A stretch of DNA of 64,000 nucleotides from IMG/VR virus record IMGVR_UViG_3300045988_123906. One strand, 5' to 3'. The stretch's first letter is position 1. The number at the start of each line of letters is the position of its first letter. A program made the translations under genes and the position numbers. Shown one piece after another: positions 5,292 through 27,164 of this stretch. The notes beneath the pieces were generated by a model. It was not told where the DNA came from, did not search any database, and saw only the letters and a list, made by a program, of their open reading frames with translations. The stretch comes from a virus.

Positions 5292-6092
5292 TTATCCTCC
5301 TATAGTTTCGTTTTCTTTGTCAATTCGCTCTATCCATTTTGACGGATCGTATTTTCCGCCCCAAACGGAATAGTTCATTTCGGCGATGTTTAGTTGTTTT
5401 GCGCGTAATAGCTGGGAGAACGTATCTCGTATCTGCCCAACTGTCAGCTCAAAGATGTTTGAATAATTCAAACTTGGATGAAAAGTGCATAAAAGAGAAA
5501 TCATGTTCGGCAGCTCGAAATTCGGGTCTGCCTTTTTTGTTTGTTTGAACTTTTTCTTCTTCTTTTGGAACTTCTCATAAAACAAGCGATCTTTTTCGGT
5601 CTTGAATTTTGGAGCTTCTTCAGGGATGTCGCTTTCGTCGATATCAACCATCTGCAAGCAAATCTTTGTTACGGTTGAATAGTTGTTTCTGTCGATATAG
5701 CCACCGATAGAAAATCCTTTTTTGCCGTTATTTTCTTTGTCGATAAAAATTGCTCGATGCTGCTCGTCCCACTCCAATTCCCCAGAAACAAAAAGACCCA
5801 GGGCCGAAATTAGTTCAGCCCTGGATTCATCTGTCGATGTAAGAATATCAAACATCGCAATATTTGCTTTTTGCTCACTTGTCATTTGCTCCCAGATATC
5901 TGGCATTTTCATCATAGTTGCCGCATCGTGGTAGTATTTTTCTGGGGTATATAAAAATAATGTCAGTGCGTATTGATACTGGGTGTATCCTATCTTCAAA
6001 ATGTCTTTCAGAAAAGGGGAGTGGATTCGCCCAACATCTTTTAGCTGCACGCCATATGGGCTCAGATGATCAAGGTACGATATTTTTCTCAT
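5292..6092 (-). CDS. hypothetical protein (neck/tail module)
   Basis: 266-aa ORF. Its ATG overlaps the upstream TGA (TGATG), and an AGGAGG RBS lies inside the upstream gene. Confidence 0.6.
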   Translation of the reverse strand: MRKISYLDHLSPYGVQLKDVGRIHSPFLKDILKIGYTQYQYALTLFLYTPEKYYHDAATMMKMPDIWEQMTSEQKANIAMFDILTSTDESRAELISALGLFVSGELEWDEQHRAIFIDKENNGKKGFSIGGYIDRNNYSTVTKICLQMVDIDESDIPEEAPKFKTEKDRLFYEKFQKKKKKFKQTKKADPNFELPNMISLLCTFHPSLNYSNIFELTVGQIRDTFSQLLRAKQLNIAEMNYSVWGGKYDPSKWIERIDKENETIGG

Positions 6093-6589
6093 CAGCGAGC
6101 CCTCCTAAAAGAGCCAACCTGATAAACAAGTATTCGTCCGTAATAGCATTGCGCTGGCTTATAGATGCTGCTTCCAGCCTATTCAAGCGGTCCAATTCCA
6201 AATTCTTTGTTTCCATTCAGAAGCTTATCAATATCACTGGCCAAAATATCAATGCGTGTCCCAGCCTGTCCTTTCCGATGATATGTCTGCATAAGGTTTT
6301 TACTGCAATATGCAAATACGTAAATGGTCATCATCGTAATAGAATCACCGCTGGTTTGTTCTGGCACGACCTCAACACACAAAAACGTTTTTGAGTTTTC
6401 CTGCGTATCTGGAACATACTCATACTTAAACACGCATCCACCTTCACCCGACCCATTCTTACCAAGCAGAAGAGTTTCGGGATCGTCGATATTATCTGTA
6501 TTGCCCAATAGGACATCAAGGACATTTTCGTCATTGATCAACTTGGAAACGACCCGATTTTTGAATACCCCGATCTCATCGAGATTCAT
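6092..6589 (-). CDS. structural-module protein with in-frame TAG (6179-6181)
   Basis: The track ORF 6179..6589 ends at TAG. The same frame continues 28 codons to a TGA (6092-6094) that overlaps the next ATG by 1 nt. Confidence 0.6.
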
Positions 6590-6590
6590 A

Positions 6591-7631
6591 TCAGATCACC
6601 TCCAATTCGATTTTTTCGGTAAGGCCGGCTGCTTTAACCGTCAGTACCACGACTTGTCCAATCAACTTAGAATCATCCACACAAGTGATCTTGCACTTTG
6701 CACCGGTCGTAGTCGTATTACCGCCTTTGAAACATACTCCCGCAGGAGTACAATCACCGGTAAGCGTCCATTCTGCGCCGTCGTACACTTCGCCATCGAT
6801 TTTTGCAGTAAACAGCTTGCCAAATCCGCCCGTTGGGATGGATGGTTCGCCCGTATACTCTATCGAAAGCACTCTGTCGTCTACGGTGTTATCGTCAGGA
6901 TAGGTGATTTCCACGTTATCGGAAGCATCTTCAGGCACATAATTGCAGATCATTTTCTCTACATTGTCTGTTTCTGCGTTGTAAAGATCCTGTTCAACGT
7001 TAAACGAGAGGAACCCGATCTGGTCATTATCATAGTCAATTCGGCCAGTCATCTGGTCAATCGACGTGATTCGATAGGTCTTTGGTTCTCCATTGACGAT
7101 CTCCAACATCAGCCGTTTTCCAATGTTCAGACGGGCAGAATACTCGTCGAACGGGGTTTGAATGCGGAATTCACGGGTTGAATAACTCATTACCTTATTC
7201 TCACTCAGGTTGGAGTAATACGGCTTTTCCACAGTTGCCCATAGAGATACGATCTTTTTTGTCTGGTCATCCTGCCACACGATTTGTTTCTGGCAGATCT
7301 GAATGCGGCCGCGCACGGTAATCTCATCGTCTGCATCACGTTCTGTAATCAGCCAGTGGCTCTTACCCCAGTACATAATGCTGCCGATCTCAAAATCCTC
7401 ACCAGGTCTTGTGCGGAATATTTTCTGGTTTGTAACAGTAGATGATATAATATTTACCCAGCGGGGTACGTCATCTATCGTTACTTCTTTATAAGAAGGA
7501 TTGACTGGCGCTAAAAAGCGCGTATCATGGAGTGCCTTATTGATCACCCTGTCGCGCTGTGTCTCTCCATCCTGTTTCAGCATGGCTCTATATTGAGATC
7601 TTGTCATATCCCACCGCCTTACTGTGTCCAT
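6591..7631 (-). CDS. neck/head-completion-type protein with a C-terminal Ig-like region
   Basis: 346-aa ORF in the head-tail joining position. The last ~90 aa (GEVYDGAEWTLTGD...KITCVDDSKLIGQVVVLTVKAAG) look like a Big_2-type Ig domain. Confidence 0.45.
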   Translation of the reverse strand: MDTVRRWDMTRSQYRAMLKQDGETQRDRVINKALHDTRFLAPVNPSYKEVTIDDVPRWVNIISSTVTNQKIFRTRPGEDFEIGSIMYWGKSHWLITERDADDEITVRGRIQICQKQIVWQDDQTKKIVSLWATVEKPYYSNLSENKVMSYSTREFRIQTPFDEYSARLNIGKRLMLEIVNGEPKTYRITSIDQMTGRIDYDNDQIGFLSFNVEQDLYNAETDNVEKMICNYVPEDASDNVEITYPDDNTVDDRVLSIEYTGEPSIPTGGFGKLFTAKIDGEVYDGAEWTLTGDCTPAGVCFKGGNTTTTGAKCKITCVDDSKLIGQVVVLTVKAAGLTEKIELEVI

Positions 7632-8053
7632 TCAGAAACACTGTTTGACTTAAAGGAATACAAGTTCATCTCAGCAGTCAATTTACGCTGCGACTGCGCC
7701 AAAAGGTCTTTCATCTGCTCCAGTAGCTTAGCAGGGGAGAAGAAAGAAAAGTCCTTGGTGCTCATAGCGTTCTTCAAAGCGTCAGAGTTGTAAACATACG
7801 GCTCCAGCCAATGCACAATCATGCTCAACGCCAGAATACTCTGTTCCTTGCGGGTCAGAGTAACATTGAACTGCTGCAGCTCATCATCATAGTCAGTCAG
7901 GTCTTGCACGCAAATGTCAGCAAAATCATCAATGGCGGCCTGAAGCAAGTCGCTCTCTGCATCTGCAAACATCTCGTCAGTATATCCTTCCTTGTCATAA
8001 TCTCGAATGCGCCCACGACAGCGGGCATAGATACTTTCAAAAGTGGTTGCCAT
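7619..8053 (-). CDS. head-tail connector/adaptor-like protein
   Basis: 144-aa acidic ORF, two genes after the capsid gene. Call rests on size and position only. Confidence 0.45.
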   Translation of the reverse strand: MATTFESIYARCRGRIRDYDKEGYTDEMFADAESDLLQAAIDDFADICVQDLTDYDDELQQFNVTLTRKEQSILALSMIVHWLEPYVYNSDALKNAMSTKDFSFFSPAKLLEQMKDLLAQSQRKLTAEMNLYSFKSNSVSEWTQ

Positions 8054-8070
8054 GACCCGCCTCCTTTACA

Positions 8071-8586
8071 TCAAATTGTGTCTTCCAACTCAACAGACAG
8101 GGAGTCCTCCAGCGCCTTAATCGCACTGCGGCTGTCCAGCTCACCGGTTTCGATCTTTTTCTTAGCCTCAGATGCAATCGCATCCTTGGTGCCGCCCGGC
8201 AGTGTCGGGACGATCTTCTTAATCTCATCGGCGGGCATTGTAAACACGTCATTGAAGTTGTCGGTGGTCAGACTATTTTTGTAATAGCGCTCAACGCCAA
8301 GCTTCTTGATAATGGCGGGATCATCGATCAAAATCCAATTTTCCTCAAAGAACCGGCGCTGATTACCGCGCATAGAAACCAGCTCGCGATACTCCATTTC
8401 CTGAACATCGCCAAAAGCCTCCCACTCAACGGTATAGCCTGGATTCAAGGTGGACTTATAGATTAGATTACCAGCTGTGCCATTGCGGCACTCCACCATG
8501 GTCTCGTTTGTAATTTCGACTACGGGCTCGGTCGCTACTGGAGCAGCAGCTTTCGCGGCTGTAGTCTTAGTTGTACGTCTTGCCAT
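8071..8586 (-). CDS. hypothetical head-module protein
   Basis: 171-aa ORF with an Ala/Thr-rich N-terminus, immediately downstream of the capsid gene terminator. Confidence 0.6.
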   Translation of the reverse strand: MARRTTKTTAAKAAAPVATEPVVEITNETMVECRNGTAGNLIYKSTLNPGYTVEWEAFGDVQEMEYRELVSMRGNQRRFFEENWILIDDPAIIKKLGVERYYKNSLTTDNFNDVFTMPADEIKKIVPTLPGGTKDAIASEAKKKIETGELDSRSAIKALEDSLSVELEDTI

Positions 8587-8602
8587 TCGTTCCTCCTATT
8601 TA

Positions 8603-8636
8603 ATAAAAGAAGCGGCAGGGTTGTTGCCCCACCGCT
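8603..8636 (-). terminator. terminator after the major capsid gene
   Basis: Hairpin at 8611-8636 (AGCGG..GGG / CCC..CCGCT), followed on the minus strand by TCTTTTAT. Confidence 0.5.
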
Positions 8637-8655
8637 ATTCAACTCAAATTATCGA

Positions 8656-9651: not shown

Positions 9652-9670
9652 GGTATAAACCTCCTATAAT

Positions 9671-9700: not shown

Positions 9701-9728
9701 TTTATGTTGATTTCTTAAAACTTCGGAA

Positions 9729-12110: not shown

Positions 12111-12111
12111 C

Positions 12112-13635
12112 TTATGCCTCCTGTCTATCGGCGCTTACATTGCCAGCATCAGACAGGCCCTCGCCCTTACTTGCATTTGTTGGGCGGCCACCTTCATCCC
12201 CGGCGGAACCGGACTGAGTATTGGAGCTCTTGAGCGGTGTTTCACCAGCACTAAGTCCCAGGATTTCATTTTCAAGATAAGTCATGTTCTCATAATCGCT
12301 ACCCGCATAACCAGTAGTTGCAAGAGCGGCGGTTCGAGTCGGCATACCATAGGTGGCATCCTTGAGATATCTTTCATGCATCTCAGTCACGTTATAATGA
12401 GTGACTGGTAGGAAGTTTAGGCGGAACTTATAAGAACTGGAAACGCTCTTCAGCTTGCGATTGATCCAGCGCTCCAACTGTCGCATCACCGCAAACACGA
12501 TCTCCTGGTCATTCACGGTACACAGCTGCAGGGTAGTAGCAGAAGGATCTTCGCCACCGCCGAACAGATTCTTATTCACGCCAGCGCCTGTAAAGAATGT
12601 GGCCTCAGCATTTGCGACCTCTTTAGAGTCACTGTTCACGCCGCTCTTTTCAAAGTTCCAGCTACTGATCTTCATGGGAGTAAGAATTGCGCCAATATTC
12701 GGCGGAAGTACATTACTCATCATGTCATAGAACTCTTTTGCTGTATCATAGTCGATCAGGAAAGAGCCGTCAGCATCATTCACTGGAATCTCCATTGCCA
12801 GCGCCTTATAGTTATTGGTCTCACTTGCGTTTTTACTGATGGCACGGTAGTCTTCAATATCGGCAAGCGCACTAAACAAACTCACAAATGGGGGAATGGG
12901 GATATAATCGTGCTCGTTTACTTTGATGCAGATGGATTTGGAACTGTCCAGCTCTTGCCACTTGTAGTTCTGCGAGTCAGCCTTATATTGGTTATACATC
13001 GTCTCAAACTCTGGCGGATAGTTGGGCAGCTTGTCTTTGTTGGAATCAAAATAAGAAAAATCAAAAGCAAAATTATAAACGCCGTCTTCAATGCTGCTTA
13101 TTTTACAATAGTCGGCATCAAGATTTTGGAAAGCAAAACTGTCATTTGTCTCCCACGCATAGCCATAGTAAACATCATCGCGGAATGCAATTGTCAGTAT
13201 CTTCGTAGCTTCGTGCGGGATATTCATCAGCTCAACTGCTGTTACAGCGGAATAATATGCTTTCTTAAATTTATTGGCGTTAATTGTCTTAGAGCGATCA
13301 AGTCCATACGGAGAGATCGTGTAAGAGTATGTAGACATATTCGCAAAATACTGAATCAGTCGGCGATAGTAATTTGAAATATTGAATAGATATTTACTCA
13401 TATTTCGTAGCTGCTTCTCATAGTTGGCTGGGTTGCCAAGATAGGTTACGATCTGATTTTTCGTATATTTTGTATATGTTGGATTTGTGTCGGTACTCGA
13501 TGCTAGATTACGGATACCGATATGTGACAGGTTCGCATAAACGCCATTGACAAGATCCTGATATGTTACATAAGAGGTCTTACCATCTTTGGCATTTGTT
13601 ACGCGGACCTTTTTCTGCATTTTATCTTCAGCCAT
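12112..13635 (-). CDS. portal protein
   Basis: 507-aa ORF immediately after the large terminase gene (TAATG overlap). Size and position are typical, and the Gly/Ser-rich charged C-terminus is common in portals. Confidence 0.7.
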   Translation of the reverse strand: MAEDKMQKKVRVTNAKDGKTSYVTYQDLVNGVYANLSHIGIRNLASSTDTNPTYTKYTKNQIVTYLGNPANYEKQLRNMSKYLFNISNYYRRLIQYFANMSTYSYTISPYGLDRSKTINANKFKKAYYSAVTAVELMNIPHEATKILTIAFRDDVYYGYAWETNDSFAFQNLDADYCKISSIEDGVYNFAFDFSYFDSNKDKLPNYPPEFETMYNQYKADSQNYKWQELDSSKSICIKVNEHDYIPIPPFVSLFSALADIEDYRAISKNASETNNYKALAMEIPVNDADGSFLIDYDTAKEFYDMMSNVLPPNIGAILTPMKISSWNFEKSGVNSDSKEVANAEATFFTGAGVNKNLFGGGEDPSATTLQLCTVNDQEIVFAVMRQLERWINRKLKSVSSSYKFRLNFLPVTHYNVTEMHERYLKDATYGMPTRTAALATTGYAGSDYENMTYLENEILGLSAGETPLKSSNTQSGSAGDEGGRPTNASKGEGLSDAGNVSADRQEA

Positions 13636-15392
13636 TACAGTCCTCCCTTCTTTAATACAGGCGCTCTAAAGTTAAACGTGAGCGAAGTTGGCTTTTTATT
13701 CTTCTTCTCCATGCTTCGTTCAACTTGCTGCGCAATGTAATAGTTGTAAGACAGGGAAGAGTAGCGGTCTTTACGGCAGCCGGATTTCTCCTTGACTTTG
13801 ATAACGTTATTCACGGTTTCGTAGCCCAGATTTACAAGCTCGTTTACAGCAAGTCCGGTATTGATATATGGCATCTGTAGTGCGGCTCGTTCAGTAGGCG
13901 ACATTTTATCATAGCCTTTATAGATTTTGCGCAACTGGTCTTCACATCCGTACTCACTCTGAAGCAGATGGATACGTCCTTGCTGGAAACCGCTGCGTAA
14001 TCCAATGGCTACATCGCTATTAAACTGGGAGCTGCCCATAATAGCCTAGATGACCTTGCGAGCATTTTTGTCAGCACAGCGAGATGCGATTTCTTGATTG
14101 TTACAGCAGCTAATCGCAGGATACGTTTCGCCTGTTTCTGGGTCATACATATCGCGCATTAACAGGTCGACCAGAGGTAATCCAACGCCTCTACAGTCAA
14201 CCCCGATATAATCACAGTTGAAGTAATCGAAATACCGTCGCAGTTTTAGTGCCTGGTCTTGCGCACTCATACCCTCAACGTTCTCTGAATAGACAAAGTT
14301 GCTGGTATAGCGCCCTGATTTATTCGGCAGCATACAGTTCAAGAATATACTGGTTGCGTCGTTGTCGTTTTTGCGACTGCTCATCAATGCAATATCGGCA
14401 GTAAGAATTCGCACTTCACCATTTTTCTTTTTCGGCACATCCATAGCAGCTTGATTAAGTAAAAGATTCGGTGCGTAGAACGCCTTTTCAATGACGCGCG
14501 TTTTGTTGATGTCATCAAATTGAAATAAGCCGCCTTCGGTAGCACCAAGCCACTTACATTCGTTCTCCATTGCAAATGTCAAATCAGAAAAACTGGATTC
14601 ACTCATTTCATCTTCTACAGCCTCCTTCAACAGCAAGCCGCTCTTGATTGACATTTGATACGGGAAGGATACGCAGAAATATTTTTTATTAAAGTCGATC
14701 ATATTTACGAAGTAGTCCTGACATTTTTCATAGCTCCAATGGTTTTGGAACCAAGCAGAACTTAGATAGAATTCTTTATTTCGCTCTGCAAGATGTGCAT
14801 ATTGTGGCTTGTCCAAATATCCAGGATGACGAACAATATTCAGGAACTTCTTCAAAATCAAATCAATAACATCTTTAGATAGTAATCTATATTCATCACA
14901 GATAAGAAGTGTAGCTCGACTACCACGACTGCTATCTGTTGCAGTGACAACTTTGATATAGCTACCGTTCCTAAATATAATTTCTGCCTTTTGATTATTG
15001 ATATCGACCTTTTTGATTTCAGATCGTAGAAGGGGACTATTGGGGTAGATCTCCTTCATTATCTTTTCATCCAAAATACTGATAGATTGGCTTCTTACCT
15101 TACAGGCAATACAAACCTTGGAACCAGGCCATAGAATACATGTAATCACACAGAAAACTGCGGTTAGAAATGACTTACCAAGGCCACGAGCAGCAATGAA
15201 GCAGAAGCCGGTACATCTTACCATCAAAAACAATAGTAGCTCTTGGAATGGCTTCAATGTCAGGTTTAAATAGTCTTTTGCAAACCGCTGAGGATTCGCC
15301 CTATAAAATGACGCCCTCAGGGCAACTGCGTTCATTATTTTTTCTGATTTTGTATTCGCTACTTCCTTATCTGTTAATTTCTCTTTACTCAT
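13635..15392 (-). CDS. terL: terminase large subunit, with in-frame TAG (14046-14048)
   Basis: Walker A is AARGLGKS and Walker B is LLICDEY. The track splits it into 448 aa and 134 aa. Both pieces are in one frame, separated by TAG plus 2 codons. The joined protein is 585 aa and ends in a TAATG overlap with the portal start. Confidence 0.85.
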
Positions 15393-16387
15393 GCGGAACC
15401 ACCGCCTTCGCCAATACCGAAAATAGTTTCGCGGAGGCTAGTATCTGTGGCATCGTCCTCATTTGTCTCTGGTTTATGAGCAGTATATCGTTCAAACTCT
15501 TCGTCAAATTCGTCTTGATATGGATTCTTTAAGTTGAACATCTTAAGCAACGTGCCCAACACCCATACTCTGAAATACTTACCGATACCATCAACGTCCT
15601 GCCACTCTGGCGACGGCTCTGGAATCGGTTCTTCCTCTTCCTATTTCTGAATCAGCGTGCCAAAAGTATTCGTCTCAGCCAGTGCGTTATCGTTCGTCTG
15701 GTTCGGCTTGATTTGGGCAGAACCCATTAGGTTTTGTAGGTTATCGTTTGCCTCTTTGATCTTTTTGGTATCACCAGTGGCATCAGCCTTATCGCAATTA
15801 AGTTCTGCCTTTGCAATGCGTTTGAACAGAATTTCTTGTGCGGCCGTCTTACATTCATGTCTAGTGATAAGATTTTGATAGTGCTCATCAAGGAATAAAT
15901 AATCTTTTTCATCCAGACCAGTACCCCAGAATTTTCTCATCTTCAGAGTGACCTTTGTCCCCTTTGTATCACCGGCAGCCAAAGCGTCTTTTTTCTTCTG
16001 GTCGATCACATCGTCATAAGATTTATCTGCATACTGACGTATATTAAGCCGTCCCATATAGGTGTTAATTTTTAAAGCAGATGCCACAGAATGTTCTGAA
16101 GCGTCAAGCAATTTATCATTTACATAGGTATCGAACATCATAGCCAGACGGTCAATCGCTTCATCTTCATCGTTATACTTCTTAACATAAAACTCAAACA
16201 TCTTCTCACGGCACTCATTGCACCACGGGAGGTATCCGTCGTTACCAATAAACCATTGACTCTTCGTTTTTGAGAAATTACCTTTGCGCACGTCATAGAT
16301 TTTTCCGCAACACATACATTTACCACCACTCCAAGAGGGCGGAACCTTGATACGAGGCGGTTTCTTATCTGCGGCAACTCTGGCCAT
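15389..16387 (-). CDS. terS: terminase small subunit candidate, with in-frame TAG (15641-15643)
   Basis: Lies directly upstream of terL and has a CxxC...CxxC zinc ribbon (CMCCGK...WCNEC). The frame continues 83 codons past TAG to a TGA inside an ATGA overlap with the terL start. The start is probably ATG 16387 (TTG 16393 in the track). Confidence 0.6.
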
Positions 16388-16628
16388 AGCCAATCACCAC
16401 CGTTCCATCGTCCATCATATCATCGAAGCGATATTTGATCTGATCCTATAGTTTTAAAACTTCATTCAGTTTTTTCGTCTTGCGGAATTTTGTATATACA
16501 GAGCCGGTTACCGGGTGCTCTCCAATCTCTTCGTAAAAAATTCCCATAGCGCGAACAAACAGCGCTGTCCGTCTGGAATAGCAGTAGAAGTAATCGCCTC
16601 CTAAATCTTTGTGATATTTTTCTTCCAT
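16365..16628 (-). CDS. hypothetical protein (60 aa if TAG 16446-16448 stops, 87 aa if read through)
   Basis: Track ORF 16446..16628. The read-through version would overlap the terS start by 23 nt, so this TAG is ambiguous. Confidence 0.45.
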
Positions 16629-16788: not shown

Positions 16789-17973
16789 TTAAATTACTAT
16801 CTTTGCTGGCTTCTCCAGCTTGACATCGTACAGACATTCTAGGCCGCTGTCATCGATTACAGCCACTGCCTGTTGCGGCACATCATTCTTGCGCAGTCCA
16901 ATTGCGTAGGAATCGCTGCCACAAACGCAGCCGCTCTCAATAACCTTCGCACCATGCACCGTTGTCATGCCGTTTGTGTGGCGGTGACCAAGGAACGCCA
17001 TGTCAATTGGCTGCTTCACCATCAGTGTCAGGTGCTCAACGACGTTAGCAGGGGAGTCTTTATCTCCATGTGCGTACATCACAAGACTATTCCTAGCTTT
17101 AAAGCCACCAAAGGTCGGATCGAGCTTCTCTGTTTTAATATCAATGCCAGCCAGATTTTGCAGCCGTGCCTTCATATAGAACGGGATCAGTGCCTCAAGT
17201 TCATCGCCTGCTACCTGATCCTCTTTGCTGGGGAATACTCGTGAATGATTGCCACTCACAGAATACACGTCAATATGCTGGCATACCTCGTACAGTGTAG
17301 CAACAAAATTACTTACCAGCTCTGCAGCCGTCATAACCTGCTCAATGCTGTTTTCATTGTTCTGCACGCGGGTATTAACATGGATATGCCCATTGATCAG
17401 GTCGCCCAACAGCAGCACATGAATCTTTTCGGCTGTATGTCGCGCTACGATATTGAACACCTGTGCAGCATAACTCTCAAGCCTAGCTTTCAAGATATCT
17501 TTGTTGAACTTATTCCACGCCGAATCAATACCCGCGCCAGCATGTAAATCAGACAAACACACAATCACATCGTGACCGCTGTCTTCGTATTGCACAACAT
17601 TCAGAAAGTTGTCAGGGTTATACGGAGCAACGTTCTTCAGAATCAATTCCTTAACGGATTCGGCACGGGCAACATCGCGATACACTTTGTTTGCTGCATT
17701 GCGTTCATCTTGTAATTTGATCTTTTCAATCTTCAGTCGCTGTAGTTCATCCTGGATTGTTTCTTCGTTGGCGTGATCAATAGCGTAGTCATAACCATCT
17801 TTCCACGACTTATAGGTCTTGCGGTATCTGCATTCGCCATAGTCTGAGCCGGTTGCTTCATTCAGCAGTTCTGCTGCCTGATTCTAAGTCAGCTTACGTT
17901 CGCTGCATGCCTCACCAATCCGCATCATATATTCATCAAAGGTCTCGCCGTCCGCTTTCTTAAATTCGTCCAT
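16789..17973 (-). CDS. calcineurin-like metallophosphoesterase, with in-frame TAG (17884-17886)
   Basis: Motifs present: LSDLHAG, GDLINGH, SGNH and GHRH. The track ORF starts at an internal GTG. The same frame runs up to ATG 17973, 8 nt from the upstream stop, through one TAG at codon 30. Confidence 0.8.
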
Positions 17974-18255: not shown

Positions 18256-19068
18256 TCATTTCGGTCGTTTGTTTCGATTCGCATTCTTTTTCGCTAGACG
18301 TGCCTGTTCTTTCTTTGCCGCACATCCTTTGCAATATCTGCTGGCATTTGGCTTTTCTGAGTGATACTGTTCGCCACACACGATGCAATAACATTCCTTC
18401 GGGTCAAACAACTCTCGCACTATGGCGCTTAGATTCAGCCGATTGTTTTCAAGCATCACATTGAACGTGTACGCAATCGTGTCATTCTTATCAAGGGCAA
18501 AATTTGGGTACTGGTATAAGCATCCAATGTCGTCAGTGCCGGTTCTGTTCAGCAGGTGATAGTCGTCAGAGATCTCTTTCATGCCCCGCACTGTATTATA
18601 GCCGTCGTCCTAGTTCTTCCCAGCGCAATACATGATCTCTGTCTGCTCTTCAAAGCAGCCACCAAAACGTTTCATCTTAAACTCAGTATCCAAGGCAAAG
18701 GTATCACTTCCATACAGTCGGCAGAAGAATATTACCCCAAACAGAACACGTAATTGTGCGTAGTTGATATGATACTTTTGGCGCGCCTCTGTGATATAGT
18801 CCAGATCTTTCTGATAAAGCACAACTTGATGTACGTCAAGTATGGGCGCGTTATTTTTACGGCCTCTGCTGAACGTCTGGATCAAGTGGCTACGGTCATA
18901 GCTGACAGACTCAGGATTTTTCATCCGCTCATAATAAATGGTGGCGCATTCAATAGGGGAGAGGGAGGTTCGCTTCAGCAGATTTCGCAGCATCAGATTT
19001 GACTCGTGATAGTCCTGCCAATGATCGAGCAGCATATTCTCATTACAGTAGAAAGTTGTATATGCCAT
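18256..19068 (-). CDS. hypothetical protein with C-terminal zinc ribbon, with in-frame TAG (18610-18612)
   Basis: Track ORFs 18610..19068 and 18256..18591 are in the same frame, separated only by TAG and 6 codons. The C-terminus contains CIVCGE...YCKGCAAKK. Confidence 0.6.
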
Positions 19069-19608: not shown

Positions 19609-22152
19609 TTATTTCACCATCGCTTCATATATTTTCGGTTCAGCCAGACTATATCGCTGGCCAAGATATTCGTACTCGCCGTTCGGATCGTGAACTGGCA
19701 GCTGAACAGGAACCGGCTTGATATTTTCGACCACACCAGCGCCGGCCATGTGCCACAAGAACTTCTTGAATTTATTGGGATACTTCTCATAGCAAAGCAC
19801 TACAAGAATATTCGCCAGCTCTCTCACATCAGGACACACCAGCTTGCACTTGTTACGGTAGACATTGTAGATCGCCTGCCAGTTCGTTTCATATGTCTTG
19901 GCCTCTTCTTTGGTAATACGCGACTCAATGTCCTTATGATATAATTGCCAGTTGCGGCATTTCTTTTCGAACTCAAGTTGTTCCTTACGGCATTTGTTGA
20001 AGTCCAAGAAAATGGCCTCGATCTCGTCAAAGACTGCCTGGTCATAGGAGACCTCTGGGTCGTACATGATATGCCAATCAAAGCTGCCTGCGGGCTCTTT
20101 GCGCCACCGTACACCGCGCTCCCAACGCTCCAGACTCATGCAAAGCAGGTTCATATTGCTATGTGCCTTGCTGAGATTATGTAAACGTGCGTAGTAAGGA
20201 CCTGCATACTTCATAAAGTAGGGTAGGGGACGACCATAAGCTGCTACATTACGCGGGATCGGATACAGAACACCGGTTTTAGCATAATCGATAGCTTTTC
20301 CGTTGCAGATGCTCAAAAGCGAAATATTATCGTGATAAAGCTTCTTGGTCTTTTCCATGGTCGGAACCTTATTATGGTATGCAGTTGCGTAATTTGAAAT
20401 CTCGCCAATAGAACTCTTCAATCCGCGAATGGTGCAGGCGACTTTGTTCTTCACAATATCACATTCTGCTAACGCAGTGATCTTATCTTCAACATCGAGT
20501 GTAATAGGGATATTATCAGGAACACCACTCATCATCAGTGGATTATCGATGATTAGAACCAGGTCGCCGTCAAAATCAGAACCATTGAGTCTGGAAGCCA
20601 CGATGGATTTGATATTTACCATAGCAACATTCTGAAGATGGCTGCAGTATTTGCGGGTGTATTCGTTGTCTACAGCCTTGGCCTTTACATGCTCGGCAAC
20701 AGAAATATGGGGATTGCGCTCAATTAAGCGGTTTCCCTCCATCACACCACGACGATCAAAGCTGTAGAATTCACCGTCTTCAAGGCAGCCAGTCACAGGA
20801 AGGCCACCAATATGCTGTAACAGTGCAATAAGGTCAGGGGCCCAGAACTTAAAAGTAGCATTCATCCAAAGCCGACCGCACTTCATCTCATTGCGATATT
20901 TATCAAGCAGCGAGTGAATATAATCTTTGATTGCCGGCTCTTTTACCATCACTGGGTTGCGCAGGGCAGCAGCCATGTAATGATTCATTGGGTCGTTGTT
21001 CTCAGCAAGTAAACCAAGGAAGCAGTATGTATAAATCGGGTCGCCTTTGACAATATTCTGATACCAGGTAATGCTGTCATCAGCTAGATGCTTAAAAGAC
21101 TCATTGTCGAGCTGTAGATCTTGAATAACCTGATAGTTACTACGGGTGGAAAGCGGTTCTTGTTCAAGCGTAAAGTTCCATTTAGCCACACCAAGGCAGT
21201 TATCGTACTTCTTGAAAAGTTCCCAGTATCTCTCCCAGTCAGAATAGGTACCAGTTTTCTTGAAATATTTGAGACCCTTGTACATTGAAGCAGTAATAAT
21301 AATCATTGGTTCGCTGCCAGGTGTTACATCATATTCCATGCCCCAGATGTCCTTGATTTTTGTAACGCCGTTCTCTTCAAAAAAACGCTCGTAATCAATC
21401 TCGTGTAAACAACCCTTGATATATGGAGCACGCAGAATCAAACTGTTCATCCGTTCAGAAGTGCCGATACGCTTTTCAAATTCGCGCATGATACTTGGGT
21501 GGCAGATTCCAGCACCATCAAATGCGTTGATATCAATGTCGACTGTTTTTGTGGCGATATCTTTCTGAGTCCAAGTACGTTCTTTACCTGTTTTGCGGTC
21601 ATTAAACGTCACAGTCTTGTCTACCAGATACTCGATCCACTGATTTTTGATCGTTGTCATATAGTCTGGAACAACAATCATTTTGGGGTACCAGTTCTCC
21701 AGGCAGTGGCAGCTGCTCAGCATCAAACCACGATAAGCATAATACTTACTCAGGACGGTTGGTGTTTCAGAAAAATCTAGTTCCATGCTTACACGGCGGT
21801 CGAGTTCAGGGTAGATATGTCGCTCAACAAAACTTAACATGCTCTGACGGACCATACTTGCACTACGTTCACAGAACAGATATTTTTGGCCATTAAATTT
21901 GAATCCATGCTCTACTAAATGATCGATAGCATCAGGGTGGTTCTGGCCGCCTGTTGCATCAACAAAGATAATAAAGCGCTGGAATTTATTCTAATCATCG
22001 GAAATGAGCCGAATCTGTCTAAACAGCATATCGTCACCCTGCAAGACCTTATACTGCTCCATCTCTTCTGGTGTCAGTTTGAAATTATAGTTATGAGAAA
22101 CGATATAATTCAAGTTAAATTTTAGTACGCTATATAATGGTGGACTAAACAA
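19609..22152 (-). CDS. single-subunit double-psi-beta-barrel RNA polymerase (YonO / cellular RdRP-like), with in-frame TAG (21991-21993)
   Basis: Contains NGSDFDGD, which matches the universal beta-prime NADFDGD / DxDGD catalytic loop. The track ORF gives 748 aa. The frame continues upstream through one TAG to a TTG at 22152, 9 nt after GGAG, giving about 847 aa, the size I recall for YonO. Confidence 0.7.
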
Positions 22153-22528: not shown

Positions 22529-22544
22529 ACTATTGTGTACCTCC

Positions 22545-22727
22545 TTAGTCCTCGTCGTCGTCGTCCCACATTGTGCGCCGCTTCCGCCGCTCTGATTGCC
22601 GCTGGCGTTCGCCGCTTTCCTGAGCCTTCTCAACTTCCTGCAAAAACTGATTCTCGATCATACGCTGTTTGCGGGCGTTACGCATATAGCTGCTCTTAGA
22701 TACCTTATCACGCTTGCGATCACTCAT
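22545..22727 (-). CDS. small highly charged protein
   Basis: Start MSDRKRDK after a GAGGAGG RBS. Arg/Lys/Glu-rich, ending in DDDDED. Confidence 0.5.
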   Translation of the reverse strand: MSDRKRDKVSKSSYMRNARKQRMIENQFLQEVEKAQESGERQRQSERRKRRTMWDDDDED

Positions 22728-22995
22728 CGTCGCCGTCCTCCTCATCATAACCATAATCATCTGGGCAGTACATCTCATGGAACAAATATCGTGTCAAAGA
22801 AGGGGACATAGGTGTACCATCTTCCATCCACAACGTATCATAAAGCGATGCATTGCCGATCAGTTCCTGCTATTCTGCATATACCTGAATCGCGTCAAGG
22901 ATATCCTCGTAAGTTACATCATAATCGCGCACAGCATCAGCTACGGCAAATCCAATATTATAAATATCCTGTTTTGAAAAGTCGTTTTCTTTCAT
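22720..22995 (-). CDS. hypothetical protein with in-frame TAG (22870-22872)
   Basis: ATG 22995 follows a GGAGGAAC RBS. It has 41 codons, TAG, then 49 codons to a TGA inside an ATGAGTGA overlap with the next gene. It is invisible in the standard-code track. Confidence 0.55.
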
Positions 22996-23006
22996 ATAGT
23001 TCCTCC

Positions 23007-23276: not shown

Positions 23277-23281
23277 CTCCT

Positions 23282-23596
23282 TTACAATAGACTTTCACAA
23301 TAATATTCACTATTTGTATTGATATCTCCATTTATCAGTTTAAGATATCGTCTGTACATCTGTTCAGCATAAGGCCCAGCAATTTCGAATTCAAATCCGT
23401 TATTTAATAAGAAAAGTCTTACTTTCCTTTTAACTACAAACGTTTCATCTGGTTCTCCATAGCGGCAAACCGTCATATCGTCTTCGTCTATTTGAAATCT
23501 GAAATTATCAAATTCTATTTTACAATCATTTTCAATTTCGATATGTAATTGTAGGGCTGCTTGTTGTTGTACTTCTTCACTGATATATTTTTTCAT
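23282..23596 (-). CDS. CxC-tail family member M6 (tail SEYYCESLL)
   Basis: 104-aa ORF. ATGA overlap with the upstream gene. Confidence 0.65.
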   Translation of the reverse strand: MKKYISEEVQQQAALQLHIEIENDCKIEFDNFRFQIDEDDMTVCRYGEPDETFVVKRKVRLFLLNNGFEFEIAGPYAEQMYRRYLKLINGDINTNSEYYCESLL

Positions 23597-23886
23597 AATA
23601 GACTCTCACAGTAACACTCATTGTGAATAGATACATTGTATTCTTCTTTTGGAAAATTTTTCGATATATAGTCTTTGATAAGCTTTTGTAAAGTTTCATC
23701 AGTAACTATGGTGTTATAATCAACCCATTTGTCGAATTGAATAGTGTGATGTGAATTGCCATGATTTACAGTGTCTATGGTCGATCCATTTTCAAATTGA
23801 ATTCGTACAGGCTGCTTCCAATCTGATGGATATATGTATATCTTATCATCGGGTATCAATAATTGATTGTTCATATCGTGCCTCAT
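23593..23886 (-). CDS. CxC-tail family member M5 (tail NECYCESLL)
   Basis: Start taken at the ATGA overlap with the upstream stop (MRHDMNNQ...). Confidence 0.65.
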   Translation of the reverse strand: MRHDMNNQLLIPDDKIYIYPSDWKQPVRIQFENGSTIDTVNHGNSHHTIQFDKWVDYNTIVTDETLQKLIKDYISKNFPKEEYNVSIHNECYCESLL

Positions 23887-24209
23887 AATAGTGATTCGCA
23901 GACACACTCGTTTTCTGCCTCGACAACATTAGGAATTGCAATCGTCCACAGTGTGTCGTGTCCCATTCCATAGTATTTTACTTCCGCTTGAACTTCACGC
24001 TGGTTACCATTTGCGTCAATGTAAGATACGATTTCGTTTGTGGTTCGCAGTGGTTTATCGCTTGGCAGAGCCCATGTGAATCCATCTTTCGCCCAGTCAA
24101 AAGTAAACTCGCCACTGTTGATATCATCGGGATATCTGTACTTACACCATCGCAACGTGCGATCATCATGCAGCGTATCAAATCTATTCATTGTTGGCAC
24201 CTCTGTCAT
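23883..24209 (-). CDS. CxC-tail family member M4 (tail NECVCESLL)
   Basis: 108-aa ORF. ATGA overlap upstream. Confidence 0.65.
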   Translation of the reverse strand: MTEVPTMNRFDTLHDDRTLRWCKYRYPDDINSGEFTFDWAKDGFTWALPSDKPLRTTNEIVSYIDANGNQREVQAEVKYYGMGHDTLWTIAIPNVVEAENECVCESLL

Positions 24210-24670
24210 ACCAAGCTGTCACACACGCATTCATCCCGCTGCACTTCTTTAGGCGCAGTTGGCGGTGTAAACTCAACCTCGCTCGGATCGTATGTCATCA
24301 AAGAACAGGCATCGATTCGCACATTCGGGAAGCACATGAACTTAAAGCATCGGTCAATATCATCAACAACAAGTGGCTTATCCTCTAAGTGCAATCCACG
24401 ATAATTATCGGGAGGACAAGTAGTTGTTATCACGTGAATACTGTATTCTCCGCGAGCTCTGCTTTGTAAATCCACTATAAGGCATTGATGATCAACCCTA
24501 TACCCCTAATATTGAATATCAAGGTTCCTTGCGATTTCCTTGATATAGTCCTGTGCACATAATATAGCCGTCCCGCCCATCGGCACCAAGATGTTACAGT
24601 TGTTCTTAACAGCGTATTCGCAGATCGCATATGTACGTCCACCGCCTCGTGGCGCTAATATTCTTTCCAT
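24206..24670 (-). CDS. CxC-tail family member M3 (tail DECVCDSLV), with in-frame TAG (24506-24508)
   Basis: ATG 24670 follows a GGAGGGTG RBS. It has 54 codons, TAG, then 100 codons. The N-terminus begins MERILAPRGGGRTYA. Confidence 0.6.
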
Positions 24671-24682
24671 ATTTCACCCTCC

Positions 24683-25255
24683 TTACAATAGCGGTCTGCA
24701 CACACATTCGCACTGTTGATCAGCCAGAGCATCACGGATTACATCGTCCAGACATTCTGGTGTGATGGAGAACTGCTGGAACAAGTCAAACTGATTGTTG
24801 TTCATCAAATAGTTCATGGTGATCCGCCGCATTTTGTTCTCTGAAATATACTTCGCATCCTCTTCACCATACAGCCGCACGATCTCCTTGAAAAATTCAA
24901 AAGTATCGGTCAGCGCCAGCCTATCGTCAAAATAGAATGTCGTATATTGTGCGCCGAATTTATCTTTATTGAATATATTCCAAAAATCTTCGGGTGATTT
25001 ACAGATTGCGGTCTCCTTGCGATGCTTTTGCACAGTATCCATGCGTTCATACCAGTCACACACTGTGTCATAGATCGATGGCCTTACGAATAAAACGCGC
25101 ATTATTTCTTCTCCTTCAAAAACTGTTTTTGAGTTATGATATTGCGCTCCATATTTCAACGTCCTGAGTTGGTTCCTTTTCTTATGGAGTCTAGCACCAG
25201 ATGCATTTGCTAAGGCTCTATATGTGTTAATCAAATTATTTATTCTGTCTGTCAT
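24683..25255 (-). CDS. CxC-tail family member M2 (tail QCECVCRPLL)
   Basis: Start taken at the ATGA overlap (MTDRINN...). The body is 190 aa. Confidence 0.65.
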   Translation of the reverse strand: MTDRINNLINTYRALANASGARLHKKRNQLRTLKYGAQYHNSKTVFEGEEIMRVLFVRPSIYDTVCDWYERMDTVQKHRKETAICKSPEDFWNIFNKDKFGAQYTTFYFDDRLALTDTFEFFKEIVRLYGEEDAKYISENKMRRITMNYLMNNNQFDLFQQFSITPECLDDVIRDALADQQCECVCRPLL

Positions 25256-25488
25256 AATAAGCTCTCGCATATACATTCGTTTTCTGATTCTGGATAGTAG
25301 GGGATTGGATAACTGTATTGAGCCGCACGTCGATCTTCAGAGCAATTTCCTGGACGAAGTATATGTCGCGGATGAAAAGATAAGTCATGACCAAGCTCCC
25401 AGCGAAATCCTTGATAATCGAACCAGGTAGTATCTTGATTTTTGCTTAGAGTATCATAGAGATTGTTCATCACTTTATCGATTGTCAT
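25252..25488 (-). CDS. CxC-tail family member M1 (tail NECICESLL)
   Basis: 78-aa ORF. ATGA overlap upstream. Confidence 0.65.
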   Translation of the reverse strand: MTIDKVMNNLYDTLSKNQDTTWFDYQGFRWELGHDLSFHPRHILRPGNCSEDRRAAQYSYPIPYYPESENECICESLL

Positions 25489-25589
25489 ATACTGTACCCT
25501 TTGTTACTCATACGACCTTCGGTATCATCAGGTTTGCGCCGCGCTCTTTTACGAACTTGTCGATGAAATACTGCTGACCCTTCTGTCAT
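25485..25589 (-). CDS. small basic protein (34 aa)
   Basis: Product is MTEGSAVFHRQVRKRARRKPDD... ATGA overlaps on both sides. Below the ORF-track size cutoff. Confidence 0.4.
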   Translation of the reverse strand: MTEGSAVFHRQVRKRARRKPDDTEGRMSNKGYSI

Positions 25590-25759
25590 GTTTGTTCTCC
25601 TATGTATTTCTTGAATAACTCTACTATTTGTTCGAATTCCGCTTCTTTGTAACGGTCATACAAAGCTTTCGCCAAACCGTCAATCGCTTCATAGTTCCAG
25701 TCGCCAGTAGGAGAGATGTAATCCATTAGTCGTAAGCCGTCTATTCTTACTTTTATCAT
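25586..25759 (-). CDS. hypothetical protein (57 aa)
   Basis: Product is MIKVRIDGLRLMDY... AAGGGG RBS. ATGA overlap downstream. Confidence 0.45.
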   Translation of the reverse strand: MIKVRIDGLRLMDYISPTGDWNYEAIDGLAKALYDRYKEAEFEQIVELFKKYIGEQT

Positions 25760-25772
25760 TCTGCTGCACCCC

Positions 25773-27164
25773 TTAGTCTAACAGGTCAGCCAGTTGTGCT
25801 GTCTCGCTGCGTTCCGTCTTGTTCAGGTAGACATATCCAAAGTGCGGGTTACCAGCCAGACACTGAATTGCTTTACGCATTCCGCTGTTATTTTCAAACA
25901 CGGCCTCGTCAGTCTGCTTCAGGTCACCATCAAGCCACAGCATAGATCCCTCACCAACACGGCCGAGTAACAGCTGTACATGCTCTTTGGTCAGATTCTC
26001 AGCCTCTGAAACCATAATAATTGCATTCTTGTAGTCGCGGCCACGAATAAATCCAAGGTGAGCTACTTCTACCTGCCCATTATTGATCCAGTATTCCAAA
26101 CCAGCCTTGCCGCCCAAGTGATCAGCCAGAGGGCCAGCAAAAGAAGCAGCGCCGAGCTTCTCTAGTAGGGTACCGGGTAGTGCGCCCAGCTCCTTGGTAT
26201 TCTTGACTTCGATGTTATTGCGAATCCAGATCAGCTTCTCAACTTTGTGCTTCTCGATCATATCAATAGCAGAGGACACCATAAGCATTGTCTTGCCGCT
26301 GCCGAATGTTCCAGCCAGCATTTTAACGGTAATATCGTCGTTCTGCAGCATATCAAATGCGAGCTTCTGTTGATCATTGAGTGGTTTTACGTCGCCAGTG
26401 AAGCGATTACTGATCTTTTTGTATTTGAGTGGTACATATTTCTTGCCATTCCATCGTAGCCAGCCTACCGCATTACCTGCCGGCATATCATCGTCTACTG
26501 TGTCTGGATCACGAACAATCAGATAGCCATTCACTGGAGTGTCAAACAGATTCTGATATGTATAGCCTTCATCGTGGGTCTGATATGCCATCGCCATGGC
26601 TTCCTCGCCGCCTTCATCAAGAGTGACTTCGGTCTAGCCAGTGTAGTTATTGTTGGCGCTTACTGCTGCATCGGGATAGGTGAATTCGATCGGCAGGTAA
26701 AGAATGCCGCTGGCAATATTGGCGCAACTTAGGTCGCTGGTAACGAACTTGAAAGAATCAATGTTGGCCTGGATCTGTCGCTGTGCTTCCGGGAGCCCGG
26801 CTTCAATCGCGTCATCCAGGTTGCGCTGCATCTCGTCCAGATACCAGCGGGCGGTTGCCATGATTGTCGCGTCGTTGTTGTCACTAATCGGTTTGCCATC
26901 CAGAATATAGAACAGGGAAGACATTGGGACTGCCACTACCATAAAGGTGTTGTCGTCGTGATGCTCGGCCAGCAGGCGGGTTACAGTACGGGCCTTATAG
27001 CGGATCTCTTCGCTCTTCTTGCCGCTTGTTTTGATCTCTTCCAGCTCATGCAGTGTCATATCGGCAATCAGAAACGGCTCTGTTGCACCAGAGGCTGTTG
27101 CACTGGCAGGTTCGAAAGCGGCGGCTCCCAAATCAAGAAGCGCGGAGGTGTCATAAAACTTCAT
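25773..27164 (-). CDS. phoH: PIN-PhoH (PhoH2/YlaK-like) ATPase, with in-frame TAG (26634-26636)
   Basis: The N-terminal ORF has PIN features (FYDTSALLDLG, LHELEEIK). The C-terminal ORF has P-loop GTFGSGKT and Walker B-like VSEAENLT. The two are in one frame, joined by TAG and 12 codons, reproducing the known fused PIN-PhoH architecture. Confidence 0.8.

Follow-up and report, generated by a model that had tools for sequence, protein, structure and literature searches.

In-frame TAG codons in a gene block of an SPbeta-like phage probably specify tryptophan

TAG is a sense codon in a block of phage genes

Why do essential phage genes contain a single TAG and then continue in the same frame, and if this codon is translated, which amino acid does it specify? 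In the 64-kb window analysed here (the whole stretch of DNA), eleven genes carry one in-frame TAG each and read on in frame, ten of them on the minus strand and one, a small gene, on the plus strand. The nine minus-strand coordinates listed in a preliminary description of this DNA (6179, 14046, 15641, 17884, 18610, 21991, 22870, 24506 and 26634) are without exception in-frame TAGs (CTA on the plus strand) in minus-strand open-reading frames, and the site at 16446, offered there only as a possibility, is likewise a sense codon; 29 relatives have TGG there and 47 have TAG. The TAG-bearing minus-strand genes lie within 2.6–29.5 kb of the window. Downstream of TAG the frames stay open for 26–793 codons before closing at TAA or TGA, and since these two triplets make up ~4–5% of all triplets in the non-coding frames of the window, open runs of this length are not explicable by chance.

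A single HMM alignment crosses the TAG in five minus-strand genes. In the terminase large subunit (TerL, 13635..15392, 585 codons), a homologue of SPbeta YonF with 39% identity, the match to phrog_26582 covers residues 236–566 and the TAG (14046-14048) is codon 449, whilst in the gene upstream of terL (15389..16393) the match to phrog_3314 covers residues 25–300 and the TAG (15641-15643) is codon 251; phrog_3314 is without an assigned function, and the label terS for this gene is putative, taken from its small-terminase position. The other three are a YonJ-like metallophosphoesterase/exonuclease (16789..17973, 394 codons, TAG 17884-17886 at codon 30, phrog_284 match over residues 23–387), a YonO-like single-subunit RNA polymerase (19609..22062, 817 codons from MEQYK, TAG 21991-21993 at codon 24, phrog_8308 match over residues 11–813) with a DFDGD motif and a Pfam RdRP match, and a PIN-PhoH gene of the PhoH2/YlaK type (25773..27164, 463 codons, TAG 26634-26636 at codon 177), where the phrog_2765 match covers residues 28–461 and Pfam places PIN_4 at 5–113 and PhoH at 259–450.

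The remaining minus-strand genes are a YomW-like virion gene (6092..6589, 165 codons, TAG 6179-6181 at codon 137), of which a near-identical ENA gene bears Pfam YomW, a small ORF (16365..16628, 87 codons, TAG 16446-16448 at codon 61), two hypothetical genes (18256..19068, 270 codons, TAG 18610-18612 at codon 153; 24206..24670, 154 codons, TAG 24506-24508 at codon 55) and a gene for a small acidic protein (22720..22995, 91 codons, TAG 22870-22872 at codon 42). The plus-strand block has a sole TAG-bearing gene (53442..53705, TAG 53511-53513 at codon 24), a real gene as previously described, which belongs to a family of small proteins present in five copies. Recoded codons are thus concentrated in the minus-strand block, which holds the terminase, virion proteins, the YonO-like RNA polymerase and PhoH2 (10/36 genes, vs. 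1/52 in the plus-strand block, P = 4 × 10−4).

The gene junctions of the preliminary description also match the coordinates: base 13635 is common to the terL stop and the portal start, the start of terL (15392) and the end of its upstream neighbour (15389) overlap by 4 bases, and the stop at 6092 overlaps the start of the next gene by one base. Uninterrupted orthologues of the TAG-bearing genes are present in relatives, and with the in-frame TAGs and the TAG-spanning profile alignments they bear out the proposal that TAG is a sense codon. True stops, be they truncations, pseudogenes, assembly errors or leaky readthrough without a dedicated tRNA, would fit the absence of a suppressor gene from the window, but the affected genes are essential, their downstream parts are conserved and profile-aligned, and dozens of assemblies, made independently from different samples, show the same TAGs; we regard this reading, together with that of tyrosine (see below), as barely credible.

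TAG is avoided as a terminator

The 88 genes that could be delimited end in TAA (54) or TGA (34) and none needs TAG as its stop, in keeping with the avoidance noted previously; at 10–15% usage the probability of finding no TAG stop is <10−4. The TGA stops that close recoded genes are themselves stable, that at 15389 being kept in 79/79 aligned relatives and that at 22720 in every relative aligned from either clade (47 and 23), carriers of TGG included. Three small plus-strand ORFs, none with a PHROG match, meet TAG first and an in-frame TGA 0, 0 and 5 codons after: the ORF at 33483-33767, which ends in TAG and at once TGA (33762..33767) and whose TAG is kept in 34/34 aligned relatives, a small ORF ending in the same way at 937-942, and another with TAG at 49322 and TGA at 49340. 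We read the TAG-TGA pairs as back-up stops under TAG suppression.

Tryptophan codons face TAG in related genomes

We compared orthologous codons across >100 related IMG/VR genomes. At the ten minus-strand TAG sites the codon of the relatives is TGG at eight and TAY (TAT/TAC) at two (21991 and 24506), and CAG or CAA is found at none of the ten among these orthologues. Beside 16446, the TGG sites are 6179 (TGG in 48–49 relatives, TAG in 20), 14046 in TerL (37 and 42), 15641 (21–29 and 49), 18610 (26 and 47), 26634 in PhoH2 (15 and 45), 17884 in the YonJ-like gene (TGG in 19–25) and 22870 (TGG in 23–32). Against a pool of one-step neighbour codons this pattern has a probability of P = 7 × 10−9, and against transitions only of P = 8 × 10−5. 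Reciprocally, ~17 further TAG sites in relatives lie opposite TGG in the window, and family-wide the partners of TAG comprise ~25 Trp-type, 5 Tyr-type, 4–5 Gln-type and 1 Phe-type sites, even though CAG outnumbers TGG 2.2-fold.

Protein alignments lead to the same residue. The TAG column of TerL in 105 full-length homologues, down to ~50% identity, contains W in 101, Y in 3 and F in 1, and W449 is invariant in a 24-sequence alignment (51–88% identity), whilst the YonJ column contains W in 49 and Y in 7 (homologues with <75% identity). Even between genomes that share 96% identity or more, TAG and TGG replace one another freely where Trp is conserved, which argues for Trp as the dominant product. 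Close YonJ homologues in a public collection do show Q, which is the code-15 translation of TAG, and the database RNA polymerase protein P0149 has Q at site 21991 where the underlying DNA is TAG; public pipelines already put Gln for these TAGs in columns where Trp is conserved.

Tyrosine would account for 21991 and 24506 and for three sites in relatives opposite TAT/TAC. The codon at 24506 is TAT in 10–17 relatives and TAG in 20–28, and that at 21991 is TAC or GAC in relatives, in a column that is variable in distant homologues. Tyr codons are, however, 4.7 times as common as TGG, yet have five times fewer TAG sites, and the suppressor of the relatives does not have the long variable arm that marks tRNA-Tyr in bacteria.

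The preliminary description had proposed Gln (code 15) for TAG, its sole evidence being an alignment of the paralogs at 53 kb. The four paralogs differ in this column (E, Q, C and I) and the sole aligning relative has CAG, so site 53511 is weak on the assignment. With TGG or TAY and never CAG or CAA facing the ten minus-strand sites, and with Trp in the TerL and YonJ columns, the Gln assignment does not hold, and it is further contradicted by the suppressor of the relatives, which derives from tRNA-Trp and not tRNA-Gln.

A suppressor tRNA resembling tRNA-Trp

The window contains a first tRNA array on the plus strand (40688..43624: Pro-UGG, Ile-UAU, Leu-CAA, Leu-UAA, an odd tRNA at 43075-43146, Gly-UCC and Leu-UAG), and ARAGORN and Rfam searches found no tRNA with a CUA anticodon in the 64 kb, as had been stated from the sequence alone. 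In relatives a second array lies 6.5–10.5 kb beyond the 3′ end of the window (past 64000), with tRNA(CUA) ~7.7–9.2 kb past the last gene of the window. This tRNA(CUA) is present in the second array of 29/29 TAG-using contigs of relatives and in 0/12 standard-code relatives (Fisher P = 1 × 10−10), in seven of which the array contains tRNA-Trp(CCA). The closest relative to the window (97.6% nucleotide identity) has the suppressor, and the genome of the window, though not the window itself, probably carries it too. No RF or aaRS gene was found in the sequence searched, ~40 kb of the genome lying outside that search.

The suppressor is similar to the phage tRNA-Trp(CCA), changed from C to U at position 35. 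It has U72, G73 and the loop CUC-N-AAA in common with phage tRNA-Trp; its own loop is CUCUAAA, where C32, A37 and A38 are Trp-like. A Gln-derived suppressor would be expected to have the loop UUCUAAU (cf. E. coli tRNA-Gln), unlike CUCUAAA. Among 219 tRNAs its closest non-suppressor is tRNA-Trp(CCA), at 0.70–0.77 identity, and it scores 57–61 bits on the Rfam tRNA model. Two types exist which are only 70% identical and occupy different places in the array. For type A, tRNA-Trp is nearest by a modest margin (0.70 vs. 0.67) and there was no GenBank phage match, whilst type B folds as a cloverleaf and 27 of its 28 annotated GenBank phage matches are tRNA-Trp.

Position 35 (C in CCA), the base altered here, is a major TrpRS determinant. 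A pure glutamine code, as in crAss-like, Lak and Phassvirus phages and as chosen by public pipelines, could invoke U35, which is a GlnRS determinant, and the CAG or CAA codons opposite a few private TAGs (18256 codon 186, 16789 codon 128, 7619 codon 120, 28399 codon 221 and 53511). The literature examined moreover describes no phage TAG reassignment other than code 15, and in an E. coli extract, which loads Gln onto most phage tRNA(CUA), 28 of 29 inserted Gln (PMC12636597). We nevertheless consider it very unlikely: none of the ten minus-strand sites has a Gln orthologue, TAG occupies an invariant Trp in TerL and YonJ, the Q of database proteins is translated TAG, and the suppressor is Trp-like at C32, A37, A38, U72 and G73 and stands in for tRNA-Trp(CCA).

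Somewhat less improbable, though still unlikely, is ambiguous decoding, in which TrpRS and GlnRS both act on a tRNA(CUA) of Trp origin and a Trp/Gln mixture arises at TAG, with enough Trp product at conserved sites and Gln tolerated at variable ones. The weak G1-U72 pair, G73 and U35 overlap GlnRS determinants, E. coli su+7 provides a precedent, and the partners of TAG are mixed, Trp far above Tyr and Tyr about equal to Gln; but only a few Gln-type sites exist, most of them confined to between one and three genomes, and the free TAG/TGG exchanges noted above also speak against a mixture.

Origin of the recoding

Taken together, this sequence comparison indicates that the window probably comes from a phage or prophage of the SPbeta type, hosted by gut Bacillota, whose TAG codon has passed from stop to tryptophan. 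Among the points against Trp are the 4–5 rare, mostly private TAG sites facing CAG/CAA (53511 included) and the two window sites facing Tyr. TAG recoding is itself of a known kind, but a TAG-to-Trp assignment is not reported in the literature examined on recoded phages. Host TrpRS would charge the suppressor with Trp, and the charged suppressor would out-compete RF1 at UAG. The suppressor is on the plus strand and TAG occurs almost only in the minus-strand block, so the full-length proteins of this block would depend on suppressor expression; by analogy with what has been proposed for other recoded phages, this may gate translation so that the proteins are not made prematurely or during lysogeny.

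It seems probable that a natural TAG-to-Trp code arose here in a virus of bacteria, by C35U in a phage-borne tRNA-Trp, and possibly twice, given that the two suppressor types are so dissimilar and differently placed in the array. In a sister clade tRNA-Trp(CCA) has been retained and the corresponding genes have already lost their TAG stops. Together with the continuing turnover of TGG and TAG between genomes of 96% identity or more, this clade would, if the reading is true, make the lineage a living record of the intermediate stages of a codon reassignment.

Comparison with known systems

With SPbeta-like phages the window has in common a TerL homologous to YonF and a YonO-type RNA polymerase, and Pfam matches to YonD, YonB, YomW, YomV, YomU, YomN and YonJ follow the SPbeta gene order in near-identical contigs; genomes of the group are 108–150 kb and the relatives are prophages in Bacillota. 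SPbeta itself follows the standard code and is not known to have tRNA arrays of such kind.

The code-15 gut phages (crAss-like, Lak, Garnet; Borges et al., Yutin et al., Peters et al.) likewise read through TAG in structural and other essential genes, encode their own tRNA(CUA), show recoding in one gene block and TAG stops backed by a second stop, and include recoded lineages whose standard-code sisters are close in evolutionary terms. In those phages TAG lies opposite Gln, confirmed by proteomics in two crAss-like phages, whereas here it lies opposite Trp and the suppressor comes from tRNA-Trp; only TAG-to-Gln and TGA-to-Trp were observed by Borges et al. Phassvirus (phAss-1, 136 kb), which its authors compared with the Spbetavirus genus, is likewise a large gut phage with many tRNAs, with TAG in ~41 ORFs including TerL and portal, and with tRNA-Sup-CTA genes (PMC10607447). 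Its authors describe TAG opposite conserved Gln and a Gln-type suppressor by tRNAscan-SE (PMC10607447), in contrast to Trp here, and its TerL was absent from our nucleotide search results.

In TGA-to-Trp phages (code 4; Agate, Jade and zeta crAss-like) a stop codon is likewise captured for Trp by a Trp-type tRNA with a changed anticodon, and interchanges with TGG, but there the codon is UGA, the anticodon UCA and the change at position 34, and here they are UAG, CUA and position 35. The plastid code of Balanophoraceae (NCBI table 32), in which TAG is Trp, presumably makes the same assignment as here and is, to our knowledge, the only catalogued TAG-to-Trp code; it belongs to the extremely AT-biased plastid of a holoparasitic plant, and its mechanism and history are unrelated to the phage. 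The E. coli amber suppressor su+7 (supU) is a tRNA-Trp changed from CCA to CUA and is largely charged with Gln. It took the same single-base route from tRNA-Trp to amber suppressor, although as a laboratory mutant, and in contrast to su+7 the substitution pattern here suggests that Trp function has been kept.

TAG is translated in the minus-strand gene block

The positions at which the preliminary description had placed TAG codons within otherwise intact genes all hold in-frame TAGs, ten of them in minus-strand ORFs (6179, 14046, 15641, 16446, 17884, 18610, 21991, 22870, 24506 and 26634), and the gene-junction overlaps it described agree with the coordinates. Position 16446, which it had listed as merely possible, is a sense codon with TGG in relatives, whilst 53511 lies within a genuine member of a five-copy small-protein family. 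Across the 88 genes that could be delimited, 54 end in TAA and 34 in TGA, leaving none that needs TAG as its stop, and the window lacks a tRNA(CUA), both as previously described. Past each TAG another 26–793 codons follow in frame before a TAA or TGA, triplets that together make up ~4–5% of the window's non-coding frames. In five genes one profile alignment crosses the TAG: TerL, the gene upstream of terL (phrog_3314, a putative terS only), the YonJ-like phosphoesterase (phrog_284), the RNA polymerase (phrog_8308) and PhoH2 (phrog_2765; Pfam PIN_4 and PhoH). In an alternative-code test, reading TAG as sense lengthened key ORFs from 448 to 585 and from 748 to 847 codons. We regard it as close to certain that TAG is translated.

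Coding density and coverage were rejected as diagnostics: reading TGA or TAA as sense raised crude coverage even more, because of long antisense ORFs. The base 3′ of TAG is a purine at nine of the ten minus-strand sites and T at 53511, which we judged to carry no information, since purines prevail at codon position 1 in any case. TAGs in the TerL genes of two distant prophages (L263 and L266) appeared to be local insertions and were left out of the analysis. Three small plus-strand ORFs meet a TAG first, with an in-frame TGA 0, 0 and 5 codons further on; at 937 and 33762 TAG and TGA stand in tandem, apparently as a fail-safe stop, and the same arrangement of TAG and then a second stop has been described for zeta crAss-like phages. 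No PHROG match was obtained for the small ORFs that carry a TAG or end in one. The TAG at 53511 belongs to one of five or six small paralogues encoded in tandem (51251–54173, plus strand) with the motifs Y.MRSG ... W(T/S)D(E/D)MF.

The residue at TAG

The orthologous codon was read for each TAG in relatives' DNA from IMG/VR, at 80 loci around TerL and 64 loci around PhoH. The partner is TGG at eight sites (6179, 14046, 15641, 16446, 17884, 18610, 22870 and 26634), TAC (or GAC) at 21991 and TAT at 24506, with neither CAG nor CAA in any relative at the ten minus-strand sites. The earlier interpretation, a sense codon read as Gln under code 15, thus holds for the sense codon and fails for the amino acid, the partners being TGG and TAY. 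In a sister clade using the standard code (~75% nucleotide identity), all eight Trp-type sites are TGG and there is no in-frame TAG that can be relied on, and even among genomes of the recoded (TAG-using) clade that are at least 96% identical, TAG and TGG flip at five sites. At ~17 further positions, including some in the portal, TerL, RNA polymerase and virion genes, relatives carry TAG where the window has TGG. Family-wide, with misalignments discarded, the distinct sites comprise ~25 of Trp type, five of Tyr type, four or five of Gln type (mostly private variants), one of Phe type and two others. These genes use CAG 2.2 times as often as TGG, and the surplus of TGG partners (P = 7e-9 in the window, 4e-9 family-wide) is therefore far above mutational expectation.

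Alignment columns from distant homologues, an independent check, show a similar pattern. At the TerL TAG (...ARKVI[W/Q]AIMGSSQFNSDVAIGLR), 105 full-length homologues of 50–92% identity have W in 101, Y in three and F in one, and the column is invariant W in a 24-sequence alignment; at the YonJ TAG (...KLT[W/Q]NQAAELLNEATGSDYGECR), homologues below 75% identity have W in 49 and Y in seven. The column at the Tyr-type site of the RNA polymerase is variable in homologues, and YonJ codon 356, another Tyr-type site, is Y or F in all of them. Codon partners and homologue columns point to an aromatic residue, specifically Trp, with which Gln is hard to reconcile.

A suppressor tRNA in relatives, beyond the window

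No CUA tRNA is present in the first tRNA array (40.7–43.6 kb) or in the corresponding arrays of 38 relatives. Walking outwards from the window's last gene in relatives led to a second array, 6.5–10.5 kb past the window's 3′ end, where TAG-using relatives encode a tRNA with anticodon CUA that scores 57–61 bits on the Rfam tRNA model. Following the addition of 62 more loci, 41 contigs spanned both the TerL region and the second array: the tRNA(CUA) is present in 29 of 29 TAG-using contigs versus none of 12 standard-code contigs (Fisher P = 1e-10), seven of the latter encoding a tRNA-Trp(CCA) and five neither tRNA. Contig 141099, the window's nearest relative (97.6% nucleotide identity), has the suppressor.

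Two types of suppressor, A and B, are only 70% identical and sit at separate places within the array. For type B the fold is a canonical cloverleaf; the anticodon stem of type A, read from the sequence, has only four Watson-Crick pairs, and type A had no match among GenBank phages. U72, G73 and the anticodon loop CUC-N-AAA are common to the suppressors and the phage tRNA-Trp(CCA), which is also their nearest non-suppressor neighbour among 219 distinct family tRNAs, and 27 of the 28 annotated GenBank phage matches to type B are tRNA-Trp. From these three lines of evidence we infer that the suppressor is a tRNA-Trp in which C35 has changed to U.

A tRNA-like gene within the first array (43075–43146, plus strand; 49.3 bits on the Rfam tRNA model, missed by ARAGORN at default settings) was considered as the suppressor and rejected, because its loop has the reverse of the expected pattern, with CUA in the standard-code clade and CUG in the recoded one. 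Its acceptor and T stems vary in a compensatory manner across the 44 relatives that keep the gene, its anticodon stem is just 3 bp long (GCA/UGC), and its 7-nt loop reads GGCUGAA in the recoded versus AGCUAAC in the standard-code clade; work on bacterial tRNAs with short anticodon stems (PMC13092985) is possibly relevant here. In the same array, a 91-nt tRNA-Ile(UAU) (41320–41410, plus strand) has ~17 nt inserted behind its anticodon arm, and two pairs of its anticodon stem are mismatched; the anticodon at this locus is CAU (Met or Ile2) in many relatives. Several relatives (L094–L105, L121 and L127) encode a phage tmRNA between tRNA-Pro and tRNA-Met, corresponding to ~40.8–41.3 kb of the window, which has no tmRNA; the tag peptide is ANNNSYRCAA or ANYNSYRCAA.

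Expression and charging

In the mechanism we propose, the window's own genome would carry the suppressor, host TrpRS would still charge it, and the charged tRNA would outcompete RF1. Of the 36 minus-block genes 10 contain a TAG, versus one of the 52 in the plus block (P = 4e-4), and the suppressor gene lies on the plus strand, a split which would fit the proposal by Borges et al. that full translation of recoded genes has to await expression of the code-change machinery. No release factor or aminoacyl-tRNA synthetase gene was found among the large window proteins compared with profile libraries or in ~30 kb of flanks (~10 kb left of gene 2602–3075 and ~20 kb right of the window). Charging is the chief caveat. 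The E. coli su+7 tRNA-Trp(CUA) is reportedly largely glutaminylated. In E. coli extract, Gln was put on 28 of 29 phage tRNA(CUA) (PMC12636597). Because CUA tRNAs receive Gln in both cases, TAG may yield a mixture of Trp and Gln, which would account for the few Gln-type sites. A product that is mainly Trp, made through the phage tRNA-Trp(CUA), is the reading we hold to be likely.

An SPbeta-like phage of gut Bacillota

The window has a G+C content of 45.5% and consists of a minus-strand block (~2.6 to 29.5 kb) and a plus-strand block (~29.5 to 64 kb). Its TerL is 39% identical to SPbeta YonF, its 817-residue polymerase combines a Pfam RdRP match (PF05183) with the DFDGD motif of YonO-type two-barrel polymerases, and neighbouring genes on near-identical ENA/Logan contigs match the YonD_N, YonB, YomW, YomV, YomU_Tube, YomN and YonJ_N families in SPbeta order. 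A search of bacterial genomes for close TerL patterns gave no match, and the host can be placed only to Bacillota/Clostridia because the profile search returned only relatives at ≤65% identity; these come mostly from Clostridia and Bacilli genomes or MAGs (Lachnospiraceae, Christensenellaceae, Ruthenibacterium, Robinsoniella, Bacillus and Paenibacillus), with a few Bacteroidota and Absconditabacterales MAGs. A GenBank phage nucleotide search with terL gave a single match, an unannotated 14-kb fragment. Close relatives in IMG/VR are contigs of 108–150 kb, and some ENA scaffolds carrying the element, among them ERZ28616636 scaffold_3, reach 200–500 kb. We conclude that this is an SPbeta-like phage of gut Bacillota, probably temperate, of whose genome the window is roughly half.

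Several other features were recorded. In about a dozen relatives (L043, L045, L047, L054, L060–L062, L064, L073 and L078; TerL match 10001–~11600) terL has ~255 extra bases across its N-terminal 448 codons, without counterpart in the window, which suggests an intron or other insertion. A match to the RAGATH-5 ribozyme class of Rfam (29384–29436, plus strand; 52.1 bits, gathering score 50) sits at the junction of the divergent blocks, within the 5′ end of the minus-strand ORF 28399–29478. Two 43-nt direct repeats (38419–38461 and 38816–38858, plus strand; 98% identical, 397 nt apart) occupy an apparently non-coding stretch upstream of a 466-codon gene at 39229. The plus strand also encodes a reverse-transcriptase-like gene (49353–50585; phrog_2825/phrog_1423), near which no template or variable repeats of a diversity-generating retroelement were found, a tyrosine-integrase-like gene (52046–52867; phrog_216), and a cluster with PHROG matches to ribose-phosphate pyrophosphokinase, nicotinamide phosphoribosyltransferase and NAD synthetase (55710–59515), which may be an NAD-replenishing counter-defence module. 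MazF/PemK-type toxin genes flank the window on both sides (in relatives, L161:14176–14655 and L243:17729–18412), and an ABC-transporter permease, a PspA-like gene and an OmpA-domain gene lie just past the second tRNA array.

Evolution of the assignment and public records

In the standard-code sister clade, no TAG was found at the ~30 orthologous stop positions examined (loci L028–L038, L046–L053 and others; orthologues of window 4.5–24 kb), and the removal of TAG from the gene block seems to have preceded its capture for Trp or to have been independent of it. In that clade's gene block TAG is effectively unassigned, even without a suppressor. The lineage includes genomes with tRNA-Trp(CCA) and no TAG, with tRNA(CUA) and 3–4 TAGs, and with tRNA(CUA) and 8–11 TAGs per 21 kb; stages so closely spaced make codon capture versus an ambiguous intermediate directly testable. 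The temperate, SPbeta-like look of the phage likewise makes testable the idea that recoding silences virion genes in the lysogen. A tRNA-Trp(CUA) still recognised by the host as Trp would interest those working on genetic-code expansion.

Public pipelines already treat TAG in this lineage as sense, but translate it as Gln. In the public protein P0149 (RNA polymerase, 1061 member sequences) Q stands where its own DNA has TAG, and 20 close YonJ homologues have Q where the family has Trp, although for YonJ the Q was traced to a DNA TAG on contig L325 only, whose code-15 translation best matches the YonJ-like family P0269. The current practice of applying table 15 wherever TAG recoding is detected would, on a Trp assignment, put Gln where TerL-family, YonJ and RNA polymerase proteins have a conserved Trp; sequences of this kind are public already, with hundreds of members in P0149 and P0269, and would degrade alignments, structure predictions and family profiles.

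Comparison with known recoding

It is well established that gut phages recode stop codons with suppressor tRNAs of their own. The phage reassignments in Borges, Yutin and Cook are only TAG-to-Gln and TGA-to-Trp, and Peters et al. report proteomic confirmation of TAG-to-Gln. The Phassvirus group, which its authors compare with the genus Spbetavirus, is also described as TAG-to-Gln. Phrase searches of the literature found no report of TAG/UAG-to-Trp in phages or bacteria; if true, UAG = Trp would be a new stop-to-sense assignment for phages, beside UAG = Gln and UGA = Trp. To our knowledge, the only catalogued code with TAG = Trp is that of Balanophoraceae plastids (table 32). Because TAG is a sense codon but the partner evidence is for Trp, we file the phage among recoded phages and not under code 15, from which it differs in the amino acid, and its UAG = Trp assignment is best described as table-32-like.
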